Shown piece by piece: positions 4,170-12,400 of a DNA stretch of 64,000 bases. Within the stretch, counting starts at the first letter, position 1. Each line of letters starts with the position of its first letter. The notes under the pieces were generated by a model. It saw only the letters and a list, made by a program, of their open reading frames with translations. It was not told the origin of the DNA and did no database searches. The translations under genes were made by a program, and so were the position numbers. The DNA is taken from contig CBDETK010000013.1 in NCBI GenBank assembly GCA_965242865.1, positions 160,001-224,000 of the forward strand. The letters are read 5' to 3'. This DNA is from Candidatus Latescibacterota bacterium. GTDB lineage: Bacteria; Latescibacterota; UBA2968; UBA8231.

Positions 4170-4229
4170 TGAAATCGCAATCCGCGCTTTGATTATAACC
4201 AGCGAGAAGGTGCTGTGGCTGTAACAATT

Positions 4230-4592
4230 ATGCGTACGGTGCGGCCTAGTCCGCAATGGCAAGACAGCTTGATCCGGCTAGCGCCCGGCCAACGGGTCGT
4301 GGTGGATGCCGAAGAAACTTGGTCGCCGGACATGCGCAATCAAATCGCTTGGTGCGGCGCCGATGGCGTGTACAACCTGCCCGCAGAATCGGGCTACCTA
4401 TTACCGGGCGCCAATGTCGGCGCCCTCTTGGGCCGCATTGGCGACGCTGGGCCGGTTTTTGCCCTGGGCAGCCGCTGCGACTTTATCGCCGACCGCGCCG
4501 GCATCCTGCATTTGGCCATGAACGAAAACCCGAGCTTCAACAGCCAAGCCGGCAAAATCGTCGCCCAAATCATCGTCTTTAGCGCACCATGA
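4230..4592 (+). CDS. LecA/PA-IL-like lectin-fold protein (putative)
   Basis: 120 aa beta-rich ORF with GALLGRIG...G.LHLAMNE...N..G pattern; stop overlaps next start. Confidence 0.55.
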   Translation: MRTVRPSPQWQDSLIRLAPGQRVVVDAEETWSPDMRNQIAWCGADGVYNLPAESGYLLPGANVGALLGRIGDAGPVFALGSRCDFIADRAGILHLAMNENPSFNSQAGKIVAQIIVFSAP

Positions 4593-5581
4593 GCCTCGCC
4601 CGCAGTGCGATCGCGCCGCTGGCCGAAGGAGTCTGGCGCGTTGAGGACGCGGCCGGCCGCGATGTCGTGGTCAAGCACCAGCTCTTTGGGCGGCTGACCC
4701 GCGGCCGGGCCTACGATCTGCTCGAAGTGGAGCGCGAAGTGCTCGACATCCTGCGCACAGCCAACTGTCCGGTGCCCGCCTGCCTCGGCGTGGACCCAGA
4801 CGCCCAGTGCATCTTCTTGCAATGGGTGGGCGATCGCCTGCTCGACGACGCCATTCAGGACGGCGACCCAGAGCCGACGATGCAGGCCATTCGCGGGTTG
4901 TGCGCCATTGAGCGCGCCTGCGCCCAACGCGCCGACCGGCTAGTCCCCCGGGTCGTGCCGAGCGCCAGCCGCGCGGCCCTTGCCACCGCTTGGGACGAGG
5001 CCGGAGCGCGGGCCTACGCGGGCATGGAGCAGTTGTGCGGCCGGCTCCAGCGGCCTTTGGACGCCGGACTGCGACCGCTGCTCAAAGCCATGCACGGCTG
5101 GCTAGCGGCGCGGCCGGCCGCGCTGGGCAGCGTTGATTACAACGCGCGCAACGCCGTGGTCGAGCCGGGGGGCACGCGCGTTTACTTCCTCGAATTTGCC
5201 AAAATCGGTTGGGACTGGACGGAACGACGCTTGACGCAGTATGTTACTAGTATGGGCAGCGGCCGGCCGGATGGGCGAATGTGCTCGCTGCTAGACGCGC
5301 CGGCCGCGCGGTTGTACGCCGAGGTATCCGGGCGCAGCGACGGAGCGCGGGCACTCGATTATCACCGAATTTTTTTTCTCCTCAATAGCGCGGCCCTGTT
5401 GGGCGCGGCCCTCGATGGCGAGCCGTACGCGCTGGCCCTGCGCCAGCACTGGAAAAGGCCCCGGGCGCGGCTGCGGCAATGCGCGACCATGCTGGCCGAG
5501 GGCCTGAGCACGGACCCGAGCGCGGCCGAGTTCAGAAGCCGGTTGCAGTTTTGTTTATCACCACGCGGAGGTACTCTATGA
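4589..5581 (+). CDS. protein-kinase-like/phosphotransferase-fold protein
   Basis: VVVKH (catalytic Lys), E-helix, DYNARN (DxxxxN loop), FLEFAKIG (DFG equivalent). Confidence 0.6.
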   Translation: MSLARSAIAPLAEGVWRVEDAAGRDVVVKHQLFGRLTRGRAYDLLEVEREVLDILRTANCPVPACLGVDPDAQCIFLQWVGDRLLDDAIQDGDPEPTMQAIRGLCAIERACAQRADRLVPRVVPSASRAALATAWDEAGARAYAGMEQLCGRLQRPLDAGLRPLLKAMHGWLAARPAALGSVDYNARNAVVEPGGTRVYFLEFAKIGWDWTERRLTQYVTSMGSGRPDGRMCSLLDAPAARLYAEVSGRSDGARALDYHRIFFLLNSAALLGAALDGEPYALALRQHWKRPRARLRQCATMLAEGLSTDPSAAEFRSRLQFCLSPRGGTL

Positions 5582-5844
5582 GCGAGTGGAACACGCTCGA
5601 TTTCAAGCCCCGGGCCCGGGGCATCATCATCGGCGATATTCCTTGGCTGGCGCGGATAGCCGACAAGGCGCGGGCGCACCAGCAACAGCGCATCGGCGAC
5701 TATGTATTTCCCTGACCGGCCGACCAGCGCTTCCTGGAGGAAGTGGAGTTGACAGCCGGAGCATTTGAGGAGATGGTGGCCGCGTCCGACGACGACGATG
5801 CCCTGATCCAAAAGATGAAAGCGCACTTGGCCAGAAAGCCCTAG
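5578..5844 (+). CDS. DUF5069-like small protein with in-frame UGA (5713-5715), candidate selenoprotein
   Basis: GGAGG RBS then ATG 5578; WLARIADKARA...GDYVFP-UGA-PADQRFLEEV... continues in frame to TAG 5842-5844, 1 nt before the next ATG. Confidence 0.75.
5716..5759 (+). promoter_or_regulatory. candidate bacterial SECIS hairpin
   Basis: CCGGC/GCCGG basal stem directly after UGA, CGAC/GTTG middle stem, CGCTTCC-TGGA-GGAAGTG apical stem-loop with loop 19 nt from UGA. Confidence 0.6.
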
Positions 5845-5845
5845 C

Positions 5846-6733
5846 ATGAGCACCCCAACGCGCCCCGCGCGCACACCCAAGCGGAGAGTTCGGGAGCTGG
5901 AGGTGGTCGTCGTCCAAGCGCGCCGCGACACCCCAGACACCACCACGCTCTTTATGTCGGCTGGCGACGAGCCGCCCGCCTACGAGGCCGGCCACTTCTG
6001 CACCATTGATCCGCATCAGTTCGGCGAGTTGGAGCACTTCACCGCCTATTTAGAAGATCAAAAGGGGCAGCGGGAAAAGCCGCGGGCCTATTCCATGGCT
6101 TCTGCACCGCACGAGCAGCATCTGGCCATCACGATCAAAGAGGAACGCTACGAGAGCGGCCAGACCCCGTACCCCCCGCTGCTGTCGCCGCTTTTGACGT
6201 ACTACGTCCAAGCGGGTCGGCGGCTGGTCATCAGCGGTTTTACCGGGGCATACACCTTTCCCCCTGATGTCTGCGACCGCACCGGTCACATTCTCCACGT
6301 GTGTGCTGGCAGCGGCATTGTGCCCAACCGGAGCTTGATCAAGGAAAGCCTGCACCGCGGCGACCCCCTCCGGCACACCTTGCTGTTTAGCAACAAGACG
6401 CGCCGCGACATCATTTACTACGAAGAGTTTGAAGCGCTGCGGGCGCAGTATCCCAGCCAGCTCGACGTGATTCACTGCATCACCCGCGAAGATCCCGTCG
6501 GCATCCGCGGGGCCCGCAACGAGCGCATCTCCGGGGACCTCTTGCGCGAAGTCGCGCCCGACCCTTCGGCGGTGCTGGCCTATAGCTGCGGCCCGGGCAT
6601 CACGCCCTACGAGCGTCGGGCGGCCCGGGCCCAAGGCGAGGAGCCGGAGCCGCGCTTCGTCGAAAACATGGTCGCCCTGTTGCGCGCCCACGGGTTGGAC
6701 AAAGGGCAGATCCGGCAGGAAAGCTGGGGCTGA
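5846..6733 (+). CDS. ferredoxin-NADP reductase-like FAD/NAD(P)-binding oxidoreductase
   Basis: RAYSMAS (FAD), CAGSGIVP (NAD), YSCGPG, C-terminal ESWG. Confidence 0.85.
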   Translation: MSTPTRPARTPKRRVRELEVVVVQARRDTPDTTTLFMSAGDEPPAYEAGHFCTIDPHQFGELEHFTAYLEDQKGQREKPRAYSMASAPHEQHLAITIKEERYESGQTPYPPLLSPLLTYYVQAGRRLVISGFTGAYTFPPDVCDRTGHILHVCAGSGIVPNRSLIKESLHRGDPLRHTLLFSNKTRRDIIYYEEFEALRAQYPSQLDVIHCITREDPVGIRGARNERISGDLLREVAPDPSAVLAYSCGPGITPYERRAARAQGEEPEPRFVENMVALLRAHGLDKGQIRQESWG

Positions 6734-7690
6734 ATGAAGTTGATCGTGCAGATTCCCTGCTTTGACGAAGAGCAGACCCTGCCCGCTGTACTGCGCGACA
6801 TCCCGCGCCAAGTGCCCGGCATCGACCAAGTCGAAATTTTGGTCATCGACGACGGCTCCAGCGACCTCACCAGCGAGGTGGCCCGCGAGTGCGGCGCCGA
6901 TCACGTACTGCGCTTCCCGCGCAACCGGGGGCTAGGGCAAGCCTTTAAGGCCGGTTTTGACGCTTGTCTGCGGCTGGGCGCCGACATCATCGTCAACACC
7001 GACGGCGACAACCAGTACTTCGGCGGCGACATCGGCAAATTAGTCGCGCCGATCCTCTGCGGTCAGGCCGACATGGTCATCGGCGACCGGCAGACGCAGG
7101 GCATTGCCCAATTCTCCGCCCTCAAGCGCTACCTACAGAGCTTGGGCAGCCGAGTGATAAGCCGCCTCGCCGGCGTACCGGTGCCGGATGTGGCCAGCGG
7201 CTTTCGCGCCTACAGCCGCGATTGCGCGCTCCAGCTTTCGACCCTTACCGATTTCGACCACACGGCCGAGCACGTGGTCGAGGCCGGGTACAAGAATTTG
7301 GCCGTTGCTTCGGTCGCGGTCCGCACCAATCCCAAGACGCGCGAGTCGCGCCTCTTTTCCAACATCGGCCAGTTCGTCTTCAAATCCGGGGAAATCAGTT
7401 TGCGGACCTACACGCGCTATACCGCACTCAAAATATTTGTGGCATGCGGCACTTTGACCTTTGTCGCTGGCTTTTGCCTCGGGGTGCGCTTTCTCTACTT
7501 CTTCTTTTTTACCGACCAAGGAGGGCTGCACATGCAGTCGCTGATTTTGGCGGCGATTCTGCTGTTGGCCGGGTTTCAGATGGTTCTCACCGGGGTCCTA
7601 GCCGATTTGATCGCGACCAATAGGCACTTGCTCGAAGACGCCCTGCAGCGGATCAAGAAGTTGGAATTGCGCGGCACGAGCCAAAAGTAA
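6734..7690 (+). CDS. glycosyltransferase family 2 (DPM1-like, C-terminal TM helices)
   Basis: IPCFDEE, IDDGSSD, TDGDNQY, SGFRAYSR, two hydrophobic C-terminal helices. Confidence 0.9.
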   Translation: MKLIVQIPCFDEEQTLPAVLRDIPRQVPGIDQVEILVIDDGSSDLTSEVARECGADHVLRFPRNRGLGQAFKAGFDACLRLGADIIVNTDGDNQYFGGDIGKLVAPILCGQADMVIGDRQTQGIAQFSALKRYLQSLGSRVISRLAGVPVPDVASGFRAYSRDCALQLSTLTDFDHTAEHVVEAGYKNLAVASVAVRTNPKTRESRLFSNIGQFVFKSGEISLRTYTRYTALKIFVACGTLTFVAGFCLGVRFLYFFFFTDQGGLHMQSLILAAILLLAGFQMVLTGVLADLIATNRHLLEDALQRIKKLELRGTSQK

Positions 7691-7694
7691 CTTC

Positions 7695-8642
7695 ATGCCG
7701 AAACCTGCGATTTACATAGACGGCCAAGAGGGGACGACCGGGCTGCGGATTCGCCAGATGCTAGCCGGGCGCGAGGATGTGGAGGTGTTGCTCATTCCAC
7801 CGGCTCATCGCCGCGATCGGGGGGCGCGGGCCGAGTTTCTCAACCGAGCGGATTTGAGCGTGCTCTGCCTGCCCGACGACGCGGCCGCCGAGGCCCTCGC
7901 CTTGCTCGAAAACCCCCAGACCAAGGTCATCGACACGAGCACGGCGCGCCGGGTCCACCCCGAGTGGACCTACGGGCTGCCCGAGATTTCACCCGCGCAC
8001 AAGGAACAAATTCGCCGGGCGCGGCGAGTCGCCAACTGCGGTTGTTATCCCGTCGGCTTCATCCTCGCGGTGCGGCCCCTCATCGAGCAAGGGCTGCTTT
8101 TGCCCACCGCGCCGCTGGCCATCCACGCGGTGTCCGGCTATTCCGGCGGCGGACGCAAAATGATCGCCGAATACGAGGGAGCCGGCGACCGCAAGCCCTT
8201 TTGTCTGTACGGCCTCGATGGCACCCACAAGCACTTGCCCGAGCTATGGAAATTCAGCGGGTGCGAAAAACGGCCGCTCTTTGTGCCGTCCGTGGATCAT
8301 TCGTTCTGCGGCATGGTCGTCAGCACGCCCGTGCCCGCGGAGTTTTTCGCCCGTCCCCCCGTCACGTGCGAAGCCGTACACGAGGTCTGGCGCGAGTGCT
8401 ACAAAGACTGTCCCTTTGTGAAGTTGGTCGCGCCGCAAGCCCCTGTCCTGCGCGACGACAAGTTCCTCGACCTAACCGGATTGAGCCAGACGAATTTCGT
8501 CGAGCTATCGGTTTGGGGCGACCCGCACCAAGGGTTGGTTTTGGTCGGGCGGCTCGACAACCTCGGCAAAGGGGCTGCGGGCAATGCCGTGCAGTGCCTC
8601 AACTTGATGCTCGGTGGCGATGAAACCGCAGGGCTGTGCTAG
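7695..8642 (+). CDS. argC: N-acetyl-gamma-glutamyl-phosphate reductase (type 2)
   Basis: IDGQEGTTGL, ANCGCY, SGYSGGG, DNLGKGAAGNAVQ. Confidence 0.93.
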   Translation: MPKPAIYIDGQEGTTGLRIRQMLAGREDVEVLLIPPAHRRDRGARAEFLNRADLSVLCLPDDAAAEALALLENPQTKVIDTSTARRVHPEWTYGLPEISPAHKEQIRRARRVANCGCYPVGFILAVRPLIEQGLLLPTAPLAIHAVSGYSGGGRKMIAEYEGAGDRKPFCLYGLDGTHKHLPELWKFSGCEKRPLFVPSVDHSFCGMVVSTPVPAEFFARPPVTCEAVHEVWRECYKDCPFVKLVAPQAPVLRDDKFLDLTGLSQTNFVELSVWGDPHQGLVLVGRLDNLGKGAAGNAVQCLNLMLGGDETAGLC

Positions 8643-9392
8643 ATGCTCGTCGATAGCCACTGCCACCTTGACCAATTTGCCGATGCGGACGCCATCCTCG
8701 CCGCGGCCGCTGAAGCCGGGGTGGGGCAGGTCGTCGCCGTCAGCGAAAGCACCCACTCCATGCGTGCGGTGCGCGCCCTCAAGCAGCGCTACCCACGCCA
8801 AGTGCTGGCCGGGCTGGGCTTGCATCCCGCCTGGGTCACCCAAGTCACAGCCGCCGAACTGGCCGATGGGCTCGCCTATCTGGCCGCGCACTTGCCCGAG
8901 GCCGATGTCCTCGGCGAGGTCGGCCTCGACTACAAGTGCGCGGTTAGCCCAGCGCAGCAGGCCCATCAGCAGGATGTCCTCGCGCAGCAGCTCGATCTAG
9001 CGGCTCAATGCGGCAAGCCGATCAACCTGCACTCGCGCCGCGCCCAGCGGCCCACCTTGGAACGGGCTGTAGAGTTTCGCCGCCGCACCCAGCTCAACGC
9101 CCAGCTACACTGGTTCACCCAATCCAAAAAGCTCGTGCGGATATGTCGGGCGGAGGGCATTTACGTCTCCGTCGGCCCGTCGGTGCTGGCCGACCCGCAG
9201 ACCCAAGCCGTGGTCGCGGAGTTGGACCGCGCGTTGCTGCTGTTGGAAACGGACGCGCCCGTGCCCATCGGCGGGGCCGTGGGCCATCCGGCGCGGGTGG
9301 CCGCCGTGGCCGCAAAACTGGCCGAGCTCATCGGGTTCACCGCAGAGGAGGCCGCGGCCAACTGGGCGCGTTATTTGGGCGAGCGGCCGTGA
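8643..9392 (+). CDS. TatD family hydrolase
   Basis: DSHCHL, GLHP, GEVGLD, LHSR, LHWF, ETDAP. Confidence 0.9.
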   Translation: MLVDSHCHLDQFADADAILAAAAEAGVGQVVAVSESTHSMRAVRALKQRYPRQVLAGLGLHPAWVTQVTAAELADGLAYLAAHLPEADVLGEVGLDYKCAVSPAQQAHQQDVLAQQLDLAAQCGKPINLHSRRAQRPTLERAVEFRRRTQLNAQLHWFTQSKKLVRICRAEGIYVSVGPSVLADPQTQAVVAELDRALLLLETDAPVPIGGAVGHPARVAAVAAKLAELIGFTAEEAAANWARYLGERP

Positions 9393-9437
9393 AAACGCTA
9401 GACATTATTGGAAATAGCTAGGTAAACAGGAGGAACC

Positions 9438-11180
9438 ATGCCAACGAGCATTTTTGCCCTTGCTTGCGCCCTCGTCTTTGGCGGGCTATCCGGGCCAGCA
9501 AGCGCCCAACAGGGCCTAGGAAACTTGGAAAATCTGATCGATCTGGGCGGCGGAGACGCCAGATTACAGGCCCTTTCCGCAGCCGACCTACCCGACCTCA
9601 ATCAGGATTTGACTTCCGGCAAGGCGCGCCTGCCCGGCAGCTTGAACGTAGATAAGACGCGCATCAGCCAAGATCGCGACGTAAATCCAGACGCGTACAT
9701 CGTCGGCCCCAACGACGTATTGCAGCTTTACATCTGGGGAGAATTCGACCAACCCTACACGCTGCAAATCGATCCAGAGGGCAATGTCCTCATCCCCACG
9801 GTCGGTTCGTTTCACATTTCGGGCCGGTCCCTGACCGAGGCTAAAGAACGCCTCGCAACCGCAGTCCAAAACAAGTATCCCAACGTGAAAATCAGCATTT
9901 CGCTCGTGAGCATGCGCTTCTTTACGGCGTACGTCACCGGCGCGGTGATGAACGAGGGCAGCTTCACCATTCATCCGACCACGCGGGTGGCGGATATAAT
10001 CAAGCAGGCCGGCGGCTTTAGGGATCGGTCACGGGGCCAAGGCGCTGAAGATCCGACCCGCCGCACCAACCGCGCCACCGGCCGGCGCTCCATTGAGGTG
10101 TTCCACCGCGACGGCACGGTCGAGCGCGTGGACCTCGACATGTTCCTCGCCACCGGCAACCTCGCGCACAATCCCTACGTGCGCATGGGCGACGTGGTCC
10201 ACGTGGCGTTCCGCGACCATGCGGTGTACATCTTCGGCGCGGTCAACCAAGAGGGCGAATACGAGTTTTTACCCGGGGACACCCTCGGCGACCTAGTGAC
10301 CTTGGCCCAGGGCTTGCGCCGCGCCAAGCCCCTGATCAGCGCCGAGCTCTGGCGCTTTCAGGAGGGGACTGAGCAGGCCGAACTCATCGAGCTGAGCGGC
10401 GACAAAGGGACGCTGGCAGAGCTGGATTACGAAAAAATCCGCCACCTCGAGCTGCGCCCCAACGACGCGGTCTTCATCCGAGCGCAGTCCCTGTGGCAAT
10501 CTACGCACACGGTCTCGGTCTCGGGCGAGGTCCGGTTCCAAGGTCGCTACCGCATCGAACCCGGGGTCACCCGCATCAAGGATGTGGTAGCCGCGGCCGG
10601 CGGCCTAACCGACGAGGCGTCGCTCATTGGCGCCCGCGTGATTCGCACGCGGGTCCGCGCCGAGAGCGACCCCCAGCTAGAGCAGCTGCAAAGACAGAGC
10701 GAGGTGGCGGGCCTCACGTACATGAACATTGAGGATCGGGCTTATCTCAAGACCAAAACCCGCGAGGAAAAGGGGCGGGTCGCGGTCGATTTTGAGCGGT
10801 TGTTTATCGATGGCGACGAGGGGCAAAACATCCTACTGGCCAGCGGCGACGTGATCTTTTTTCCCCTGCAGCGGCACACCGTCAGCGTCAGCGGCCAAGT
10901 GGAGCGAGCCGGGCTTATTGACTACGAGATCGGCCGCGACGTGCGCTACTACATAACCAAGGCCGGCGGGTACTTGTACGACGCGGACAAGCGCAATGCC
11001 CGCCTAGTCCGGGCGCGCACGGGCGTCCGCGAGAAACTCAAGGGCGACCTAATCGTCGAAGTTGGCGATGAAATATGGGTGCCCCAGAAGGAACGCATCA
11101 ACTACTGGGCACTCACCCAAGAGACCATTCGCACCGCCGCCAGCATCCTCGCCCTCGTCCTTGCGGTGCGGTCTCTTTAG
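9438..11180 (+). CDS. polysaccharide export protein with SLBB domains (Wza-like)
   Basis: Signal peptide, YIVGPNDVL...IDPEGNVLIPTVG poly-export domain, repeated V.G.V...G.Y SLBB units. Confidence 0.85.
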   Translation: MPTSIFALACALVFGGLSGPASAQQGLGNLENLIDLGGGDARLQALSAADLPDLNQDLTSGKARLPGSLNVDKTRISQDRDVNPDAYIVGPNDVLQLYIWGEFDQPYTLQIDPEGNVLIPTVGSFHISGRSLTEAKERLATAVQNKYPNVKISISLVSMRFFTAYVTGAVMNEGSFTIHPTTRVADIIKQAGGFRDRSRGQGAEDPTRRTNRATGRRSIEVFHRDGTVERVDLDMFLATGNLAHNPYVRMGDVVHVAFRDHAVYIFGAVNQEGEYEFLPGDTLGDLVTLAQGLRRAKPLISAELWRFQEGTEQAELIELSGDKGTLAELDYEKIRHLELRPNDAVFIRAQSLWQSTHTVSVSGEVRFQGRYRIEPGVTRIKDVVAAAGGLTDEASLIGARVIRTRVRAESDPQLEQLQRQSEVAGLTYMNIEDRAYLKTKTREEKGRVAVDFERLFIDGDEGQNILLASGDVIFFPLQRHTVSVSGQVERAGLIDYEIGRDVRYYITKAGGYLYDADKRNARLVRARTGVREKLKGDLIVEVGDEIWVPQKERINYWALTQETIRTAASILALVLAVRSL

Positions 11181-11206
11181 ACAAAAACCCCAAGGAGCGC
11201 GACTGA

Positions 11207-12400
11207 ATGAATTCCCCGAAAAAAGAAATCGACATCCTCGACTTGCTAACGGCGCTGCACGCGGGCCGATGGCCCATCATCGGCGGCACCTTGGCGATCT
11301 GCGTCTTGGCCGGGGGCCTCAGCTTCCTCCTGCCAAAGGAATACGAGGCCACCGTGCAAATTCTGCCGCCCCGAGAAGAGAAGCAGAGTTTTGGTTTTTC
11401 CAGCCTGCTGTCGTCCTTACCCATACCGACGCTGCGCCTCGGGGAACGGGGCACGCCGGCCGACATTTCGCTCGCGACCATCCGCAGCGAGACGACGCGG
11501 CGGCGGATGATCCAGCAATTCGACTTGATGCGGCACTACGAAGCGCGCACCCTGACCGACGCGCTCGAAACCCTCGCCGACAAAACCACGGCCGACATGA
11601 CCGAAGAGGGCATGCTTTCGGTTTCAGTACTCGCCCCAGAGCCGCAGATGGCCGCGGACATGGCCAATTACTACATCGTCCTGCTCGATAGCACCAACAA
11701 GCGGTTCTCGCACAAGACCGCCTCCGAGCGCTTGAGTTTTATCCGCGGGCTTTTGCAAGAAGAGGATCAAAAGCTAGAGGACAAAATGAAGCGGCTGGAG
11801 GAGTTCCAAGCCGAGCACAACGCCATCTCGATCGCGGACCAAGCCCGCGCCGTGATCCTGACTGCCACCTCCATGCGGACCGCCGTGCTGGAGCTCGAAA
11901 TTGAGCGCCAACGGCTCATTCAATCCGGGCTGGGTTTTGACCACGACAAGGTCAAAAAGCTCGAGCGCGAAATTCAACTGCGGAATGTGACCATGGATTT
12001 CTTGCGCGATGGCCTGCCGACCAACAACGGCGTCCTGCAAAACAAGGCGTTACAACTCGATCTGGAGGAAGACTTCTTTCTGCCGCTCAAGCAGATCCCG
12101 GGCGTGGCCCAAGAGTACGCGACCCTCGAAAAGGATGTTCTCGTGCAGACCTCCCTTTTGCTGGTCCTGCTGCAACAGGAGGCCCAAGCCCTGATTGAGG
12201 CCAAGGACGCCACTTCAACCGTGCAGGTGCTCGATCCGGCCACGCCGCCCGAGATCAAGGCAAAACCCCAGCGCGTGATGATCGTATTTATCGCCGGCCT
12301 ACTCAGCCTTTTTGCCTCAATAGCTTATGTGCTGGGGGCGGTGTACATGCGGGATATTCAGCAGCGCTGGCGCACGCGGCGCGAGGCGCTGGCGGTCTGA
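11207..12400 (+). CDS. Wzz/GumC-like polysaccharide chain-length determinant
   Basis: EIDILDLL N-terminus, TM helix, coiled coil, [12 protein letters not shown] followed by C-terminal TM. Confidence 0.85.

Follow-up and report, generated by a model that had tools for sequence, protein, structure and literature searches.

The gene at positions 5578-5844 (forward strand) of the DNA analysed here, a window of 64,000 nucleotides from a Candidatus Latescibacterota bacterium, is very probably a real selenoprotein gene, in which selenocysteine (Sec) would be placed at residue 46 under the direction of SelB and an mRNA hairpin, and in which this residue would be the functional centre, most likely as a redox-active or nucleophilic selenol. 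Judging from the sequence and its relatives, the in-frame UGA of this gene, a member of the DUF5069 family, is almost certainly read as Sec. A Sec-containing DUF5069 protein had been predicted in an initial annotation made from the letters of the window, and the prediction is borne out by the pairing of Sec with Cys, the conserved UGA, the covarying hairpin, and the Sec machinery of the genome.

The gene opens with an ATG at 5578-5580, which overlaps the TGA stop (5579-5581) of the upstream open reading frame at 4589-5581, and a Shine-Dalgarno-like GGAGG can be read directly on the same strand at 5567-5571, 6 nt ahead of the ATG. From there, the frame passes through the UGA of codon 46 (5713-5715) and closes with a TAG at 5842-5844; the ATG of the next gene follows at 5846. 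These coordinates agree with what the initial annotation had described, namely a ribosome-binding site with an ATG overlapping the upstream stop, and a read-through translation that fills the gap to 1 nt before the next ATG. The read-through protein, a short form of DUF5069, has 88 residues, of which position 46 is the sole Cys-like one, with no Cys elsewhere. A same-frame ATG at 5479 was considered as the start and rejected, since the homologues all open with an N-terminus of the MSEW type and the GGAGG stands ahead of 5578. A promoter and terminator scan of 4200-9500 returned nothing above the shuffle expectation.

The assignment to DUF5069 is based on a Pfam match (PF16798) of 49.4 bits against a cut-off of 27 (E 6.5e-13), which extends over residues 11-86 and spans the TGA; in a six-frame search of the genome the DUF5069 score was 45.4 bits. 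Used as a query against a large protein collection, the read-through product obtained 59 matches, comprising 58 complete Cys-form proteins and one frameshifted fragment (P0059). The Cys-form homologues, of metagenomic origin, are mostly 87 to 102 residues long (a few go down to 81 or up to 121) and share 49-72% identity with the query, 72% being the value of the best full-length match. In their alignment, the UGA falls on the near-invariant Cys of the family, as the initial annotation had stated: the position is Cys in at least 90% of the aligned homologues, within the motif Y-P-C-P-A-D, and the corresponding Sec/Cys motif of the product is F/Y-P-U-P/G/A-x-D. The invariant residues of the homologue alignment are mainly basic or structural (K10, P11, R12, R14, G19, P22, L24-R26, D29, K30, and P45). 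None of the 59 database matches is the read-through product of a close relative, so public gene calls seem to miss the Sec form. The same genome also encodes more distant DUF5069 paralogues: one has 444 residues in three repeats, of which repeats 1 and 2 lack the Cys, and two others retain a Y-P-x-C motif.

The UGA is widely conserved among the relatives. With a threshold of E up to 1e-12, an orthologue was detected in 119 of the 168 genomes of the phylum, in 104 cases with one in-frame TGA and in 15 with none. By family, and excluding the genome under study, orthologues occur in 67 of 75 genomes (f1), 29 of 31 (f2), 2 of 3 (f3), and 20 of 22 (f4); none was found in 36 genomes of ten other families of the phylum, and within the 168 genomes the gene is confined to one class. 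Six-frame searches of 60 relatives recovered single-TGA orthologues in most genomes of the genus and also in three further families, and in every extracted locus the TGA lies at the same codon, with Cys there in the others. A scan of species-representative genomes added loci titled Latescibacterota, Gemmatimonadota/-etes, Planctomycetota (one), Handelsmanbacteria (one, in the Cys form), and Poribacteria. Among these 80 scan loci the codon is TGA in 65 and TGC or TGT in 15, counts which overlap the 168-genome survey and are not independent of it. For the loci titled Poribacteria, TGA is present in 21 of 22.

The coding capacity beyond the UGA is maintained as well. Variability at the first, second, and third codon positions is 0.168, 0.118, and 0.428 upstream of the UGA and 0.229, 0.201, and 0.386 downstream of it, the third position being the highest on both sides; by this measure, the downstream frame is under purifying selection. 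Moreover, a 12,196-nt contig from an independent assembly in another study covers positions 4589-6733 with 34 substitutions and no indels, and none of the differences listed lies at the TGA. The window's own locus is present in sequencing runs labelled sponge metagenome. Two metatranscriptome runs contain short contigs of relatives (about 90% identity) over 5499-5652 and over parts of the downstream FNR-like gene, for which DNA carry-over is possible; among the metatranscriptome contigs, none that belongs to the window's own strain bridged the TGA.

These data bear on the objection that a nonsense mutation, decay to a pseudogene or an assembly error accounts for the TGA, so that the locus would be non-functional or its product would end after 45 residues. 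Gene callers treat the TGA as a stop, and the lack of a read-through product among the 59 matches is what this explanation would expect. It is nevertheless extremely improbable: the same-codon TGA recurs in orthologues of four families and in the Poribacteria-titled loci, the downstream frame is under selection, and the independent assembly has no difference at the TGA among those listed. The initial annotation had pointed to TGC or TGT in all close relatives as the sign of a recent nonsense mutation or a sequencing error; relatives both close and distant carry the UGA instead, and because of this conservation, the coding constraint, and the independent contig both causes are excluded.

Immediately after the UGA lies a hairpin of the kind that directs Sec insertion. 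The fold of 5713-5775 consists of the stems CCGGC/GCCGG, CGAC/GUUG, and CGCUUCC-UGGA-GGAAGUG, with a free energy of -22.5 kcal/mol and a z of -2.24; since 7 of 200 shuffled versions are equally or more stable, it is modest as a single-sequence fold. The extended hairpin of the source genome (5716-5759, forward strand) is thus as the initial annotation had drawn it, although across the relatives one part of it is conserved and another is not. What persists is a 7-bp apical stem-loop at 5728-5745, made up of a 5′ arm (5728-5734), the loop UGGA (5735-5738), and a 3′ arm (5739-5745). The two lower stems (5716-5724 with 5748-5751 and 5755-5759) are paired in 59.7% and 57.7% of cells and are regarded for this reason as lineage-specific. 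The stem starts 12 nt past the UGA, and 19 nt (5716-5734) separate the UGA from the loop, in which G occupies bases 2 and 3, so that the apical-loop G was correctly located from the window. Rules for the geometry of bacterial SECIS elements have been published, and the distances to stem and loop, as well as the loop G residues, fit them. An Rfam scan of 5500-5900 with E up to 10 found no SECIS family, and gave only chance-level miRNA and snoRNA matches.

The comparison of relatives is more informative than the fold. For this analysis, 66 nt around the codon were taken from all loci and reduced to distinct sequences, which left 79 Sec forms and 15 Cys forms; one Sec form, shortened by a contig end, was omitted from the alignment, which comprises 78. 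In these 78 Sec forms, the apical helix is paired in 94.3% of cells, and its covariation reaches 0.367, against 0.117 in shuffles (none of 500 attains the observed value) and at most 0.144 in slid controls, so the covarying hairpin sought in related genomes does exist. The pair 5730/5743 is CG in 42 sequences and GC in 36, and is never unpaired, while 5729/5744 is AU in 31, GU in 21, UA in 16, GC in 7, and unpaired in 3; the outermost pair, 5728/5745, is formed in 51. The four codons that the stem-loop covers are all but fixed among the 79 Sec forms (TTC in 78, CTG in 79, GAG in 78, and GAA in 74). In the 15 Cys forms the same codons vary, with TTC in 8 and TTT in 7, and with six different codons at the first Glu; here the helix is 74.3% paired, its covariation is at the shuffle level (200 of 500), and the pair 5730/5743 is unpaired in 9. 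As Cys-form codons vary and their covariation does not exceed that of shuffles, the constraint on the hairpin is tied to the UGA and not to the F-L-E-E peptide alone, although part of the conservation does reflect the protein, given that the hairpin overlies these conserved residues. A further sign of constraint, already suspected in the initial annotation, is the CCUGG at 5733-5737. CCWGG is depleted in the genome (2428 observed vs 12652 expected, ratio 0.19) and CTTGG/CCAAG is favoured (ratio 1.27); despite this, CCUGG is retained in all 78 aligned Sec forms (alignment columns 27-31). It is important to note that the finding rises above chance because of the conserved TGA and the compensatory changes in the hairpin, not because of the single-sequence fold.

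The genome is also equipped to decode UGA as Sec, the presence of the machinery having been a point on which the initial annotation could have failed. The genes selA, selB, and selD score 556, 349, and 381 bits, respectively, in each case above the curated cut-off, and ARAGORN reports one tRNA-Sec (selC) with anticodon tca. The selD gene has its own in-frame TGA near the N-terminus, followed by a hairpin. The gene selA is also found in the Poribacteria genome G061. Among genomes with the Cys form, G036 (93% complete) has no selA above the cut-off, and G037 and G053 keep it. A general reassignment of UGA was considered and rejected: of the 60 frames in the window that stay open for at least 250 codons, 29 terminate in UGA, which is otherwise an ordinary stop.

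In accordance with bacterial practice, the ribosome would reach the UGA at 5713-5715, the mRNA hairpin at 5728-5745 would recruit SelB carrying Sec-tRNA(Sec), Sec would be incorporated at residue 46, where the homologues have Cys, and translation would continue to the TAG at 5842, yielding the short-form DUF5069 protein. A different outcome, and a very unlikely one, is decoding of the UGA by a suppressor or by a near-cognate tRNA for Trp, Cys or Arg, with the hairpin only slowing the ribosome or simply serving the protein code. Rfam offers no SECIS match, and the hairpin covers the conserved F-L-E-E, its pairing in Cys forms being still 74.3%, all of which would suit such read-through. On the other hand, it does not account for a UGA that replaces Cys specifically, for the full Sec machinery including a Sec-containing SelD, or for synonymous sites that are frozen in Sec forms only and pairs that change in a compensatory manner. 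The absence of selA above the cut-off in the Cys-form G036 also agrees with Sec decoding, yet the Cys-form G037 and G053 keep the gene.

The surroundings of the gene differ between lineages. Upstream, at 4589-5581 on the forward strand, lies a kinase-like (APH-type) gene of 330 residues whose stop codon overlaps with the start codon of the Sec gene, and which is its most persistent neighbour in the family-level lineage. Its product looks like an active APH-type kinase: an APH match was obtained for 4 of 35 homologues, the best with E 7.2e-10, and the residues K29, E48, D183, N188, and D209 are invariant. In the window's family it adjoins Sec and Cys forms alike, down to 36-47% identity, and an FNR-like or GT2 gene lies downstream. 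In the window itself this is the FNR-like oxidoreductase (NAD_binding_1) at 5846-6733 on the forward strand, which starts 1 nt past the stop and is adjacent in some lineages only. The neighbours are ABC-transporter genes in family f2, RsmD-like and glyS genes in f4, and UPF0182 (upstream) and pheA (downstream) in Poribacteria-titled loci, two of which have a glutaredoxin-fused disulfide oxidoreductase directly upstream. No neighbour is common to the window's family, f2, f4, and the Poribacteria-titled loci, and no consistent functional clue emerged from them.

With regard to structure, an AlphaFold model built on a 60-sequence alignment (pLDDT 84.5) begins with a short hairpin and continues as four helices; residue 46 is located directly ahead of the helix at 47-55. 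The start of a helix is the usual place for a reactive thiol or selenol, and in nature Sec is substituted mainly where Cys is chemically active. Among solved structures, the only relative of the model is 3OMD, a DUF5069 protein from Leptospirillum rubarum that has 145 residues and is itself uncharacterised: the homologue profile matches 3omd_A with E 4e-12 and aligns its Cys to the Sec, and Foldseek superposes the model with a TMq of 0.78, a probability of 1.00, and an rmsd of 2.0 over 76 columns, with an E-value of only 3.4e-3. The superposition takes in half of 3OMD (TMt 0.49). A PDB fold search with the model found nothing besides 3OMD and no thioredoxin-fold match, and a search of the ESM Atlas with the homologue P0022 gave no usable match after the DUF5069 clusters were set aside. 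A CxxU or UxxC motif is absent from the Sec protein.

We infer that Sec46 is the functional or reactive centre of the protein. Its likeliest role is that of a selenol with redox or nucleophilic activity, such as a one-Cys-type oxidoreductase or a carrier of sulfur, selenium or a metalloid would have. We infer the redox role from the use of Sec in other proteins, because the neighbours vary, the fold is uncharacterised, CxxU/UxxC is missing, and some paralogous repeats have no Cys. The chief alternative to a redox or nucleophilic selenol is a role in metal or chalcogen carriage, in which the protein would be a true selenoprotein whose Sec is structural or binds a metal or metalloid (such as Hg, As or Cu), or carries selenide or persulfide, and is not catalytic. 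This is rather unlikely, but several features are consistent with it: the single Sec has no partner Cys, many of the invariant residues are basic (K10, R12, R14, R26, and K30), the fold is not thioredoxin-like, and several metal-binding selenoprotein families appear in the table of a 2026 review (PMC13188914). Against it, metal-handling genes are not adjacent in any lineage examined, a lone ligand rarely forms a metal site, and the pyridine nucleotide-disulfide oxidoreductase fused to glutaredoxin, upstream in the two Poribacteria-titled loci, is a hint of thiol redox chemistry. The redox-active or nucleophilic selenol is preferred here.

The history of the Sec and Cys forms was approached with a quick maximum-likelihood tree of 78 Sec-form and 72 Cys-form proteins, all of them distinct (150 in total), from which duplicates and rows of less than 70 residues had been dropped and in which the Sec/Cys column was masked. 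The tree requires at least 6 changes between Sec and Cys, 3 of them forced by well-supported branches, and many of its forks are poorly determined because the protein is short. Two groups of Sec forms can be distinguished. The first is a clade of 44 from the window's family, nested among Cys forms, and the second joins families f2-f4 with Poribacteria-titled sequences. The same 12-nt SECIS core occurs in both groups, and its presence in both phyla would mean a single origin of the Sec form. A joint reading of these results, a little short of probable, is that the short-form DUF5069 proteins make up an undescribed family of selenoproteins, with Sec as their normal state (in the 104 TGA-bearing orthologues among 119, and in nearly all sampled Poribacteria-titled genomes). 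Sec would have arisen once, reverted repeatedly to Cys, and possibly passed laterally between phyla; its position would be that of the active site in a new redox enzyme of non-thioredoxin fold, which in the window's lineage may work in concert with the kinase-like neighbour to which it is coupled in translation.

The finding has several implications. It provides a first functional handle on DUF5069, for which there is a solved structure (3OMD) and no role assigned, and position 46, the Cys of YPCPxD, becomes the residue of choice for functional study because Sec mainly replaces chemically active Cys. Annotation is affected in more than a hundred genomes, and public protein sets appear to contain Cys forms or fragments only. 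The prokaryotic selenoproteome is enlarged by a family whose members are concentrated in two phyla without cultured representatives. In addition, the SECIS motif combines shortness with a sharp definition and clear compensatory pairs, and could serve for training or testing SECIS predictors and for studies of SelB recognition in these lineages.

DUF5069 is apparently a new, uncatalogued selenoprotein family, and its recoding mechanism is the standard bacterial one. The initial annotation did not place DUF5069 among the standard selenoproteins, and the comparison with known families points the same way. NCBIfam models searched with E up to 0.01 give no matching family, including those that the 2026 review assigns to GOS_B, GOS_C, DG, DW, and DF; neither DUF5069 nor PF16798 is mentioned in the searchable literature; and, as far as the accessible part of the 2026 review of prokaryotic selenoproteomes extends, PF16798 is not in its family table and DUF5069 is not among the DUF names given there (PMC13188914). 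Judging from the listings, literature that combines selenoproteins or selenocysteine with Poribacteria or Latescibacteria contained nothing relevant. Sec/Cys pairing in metagenomes and genomes has also revealed other selenoprotein families of unknown function, namely the hypothetical proteins GOS_A, GOS_B, and GOS_C of the 2008 GOS study (PMC2398784) and DG, DW, and DF (PMC12013277). The evidence for them is of the same kind as for the present family: a TGA at a position where others have Cys, homologues that carry the TGA, and a hairpin resembling a SECIS. The DUF5069 Sec protein differs from GOS_B, GOS_C, DG, DW, and DF in matching none of their NCBIfam models, but it may be GOS_A, for which no model or domain is listed (PMC2398784).

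With the thioredoxin-fold selenoproteins (SelW-like, Prx-like, and DsbA-like), the family has in common a Sec that stands for a conserved Cys at the start of a helix; unlike those of UxxC or CxxU type, it has no second Cys, its model is mainly helical, and a thioredoxin-fold match in the PDB was not obtained. It also departs from 3OMD, as Sec replaces the Cys and the short form, of about 89 residues, spans positions 4-79 of the 133 in the profile, 3OMD having 145 residues. At the level of decoding, the E. coli fdhF is the textbook SelB-dependent gene with a SECIS directly after the UGA. The DUF5069 gene is of this type in its in-frame UGA, its stem-loop inside the coding sequence at a short fixed distance downstream, its loop G, and the selA-selD set of its genome. 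It differs from the known genes of this type in that its stem-loop has a 4-nt loop, no bulged base in the conserved part, and no Rfam model, in that it belongs to the DUF5069 family, and in that it has a stem-loop core of its own, UUCCUGGAGGAA, which is nearly invariant in the 79 Sec forms.

In genus g8, two species (genomes G037, locus L048, and G053, locus L047) carry TGC in place of the TGA of the DUF5069 gene, while the remaining members have the Sec form. Both genomes retain selA, and in both loci the hairpin that corresponds to the former SECIS element has started losing pairs. The selD gene of the genome from which the window derives (G000, contig C13, 4179924-4180847, minus strand, outside the window) encodes a selenoprotein too: it has an in-frame TGA close to the N-terminus, followed on the 3′ side by a strong hairpin (-29.4 kcal/mol across 66 nt). 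The same contig holds, also outside the window, a 444-residue DUF5069 paralogue (2664998-2666332, plus strand) comprising three tandem repeats of the domain, with scores of 96, 87, and 75 bits. Repeats 1 and 2 have Gly at the position occupied by Sec or Cys in the short form. Proteins resembling this paralogue, of about 450 residues, are found in many relatives.

The gene immediately upstream of the Sec-form DUF5069 gene (window 4589-5581, plus strand) belongs to an uncharacterised kinase-like family. Its product has no Pfam match itself; the family is conserved, with 77 homologues, includes a few members that match APH, and shows the kinase-like invariant residues K29, E48, D183, N188, and D209. 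A few genes 3′ of the DUF5069 gene lies a polysaccharide export pair (within 9438-12400, plus strand), formed by a Poly_export/SLBB (Wza-like) gene (9438-11180) and a Wzz/GNVR gene (11207-12400), and preceded by GT2, a semialdehyde dehydrogenase-like gene, and TatD. In two loci titled as Poribacteria (L128 and L140), the gene immediately 5′ of the Sec-form DUF5069 gene encodes a pyridine nucleotide-disulfide oxidoreductase with a fused glutaredoxin domain (L128, 2743-3966).

Among genomes placed by the genome collection in the window's own genus, the taxon labels given by submitters disagree: besides Latescibacterota, record titles name Gemmatimonadetes or Alphaproteobacteria (loci L069, L087, L088, and others). 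Loci L087 and L033 are one contig. The public product P0059, of 76 residues, matches the N-terminal third at 93% identity and is out of frame thereafter; it is the gene of a close relative called with a frameshift, and exemplifies the mis-calling of Sec-form DUF5069.

The CCWGG-type site at window 5733-5737, in the SECIS hairpin, can be set against the genome-wide count, in which CCWGG is about fivefold under-represented (2428 observed vs 12652 expected, ratio 0.19) and CTTGG/CCAAG has a ratio of 1.27. Within the window, CTTGG/CCAAG occurs 342 times, whereas CCWGG occurs 27 times. The scarcity of CCWGG in this genome suggests CCWGG-directed restriction or a pressure of the Dcm/Vsr type.
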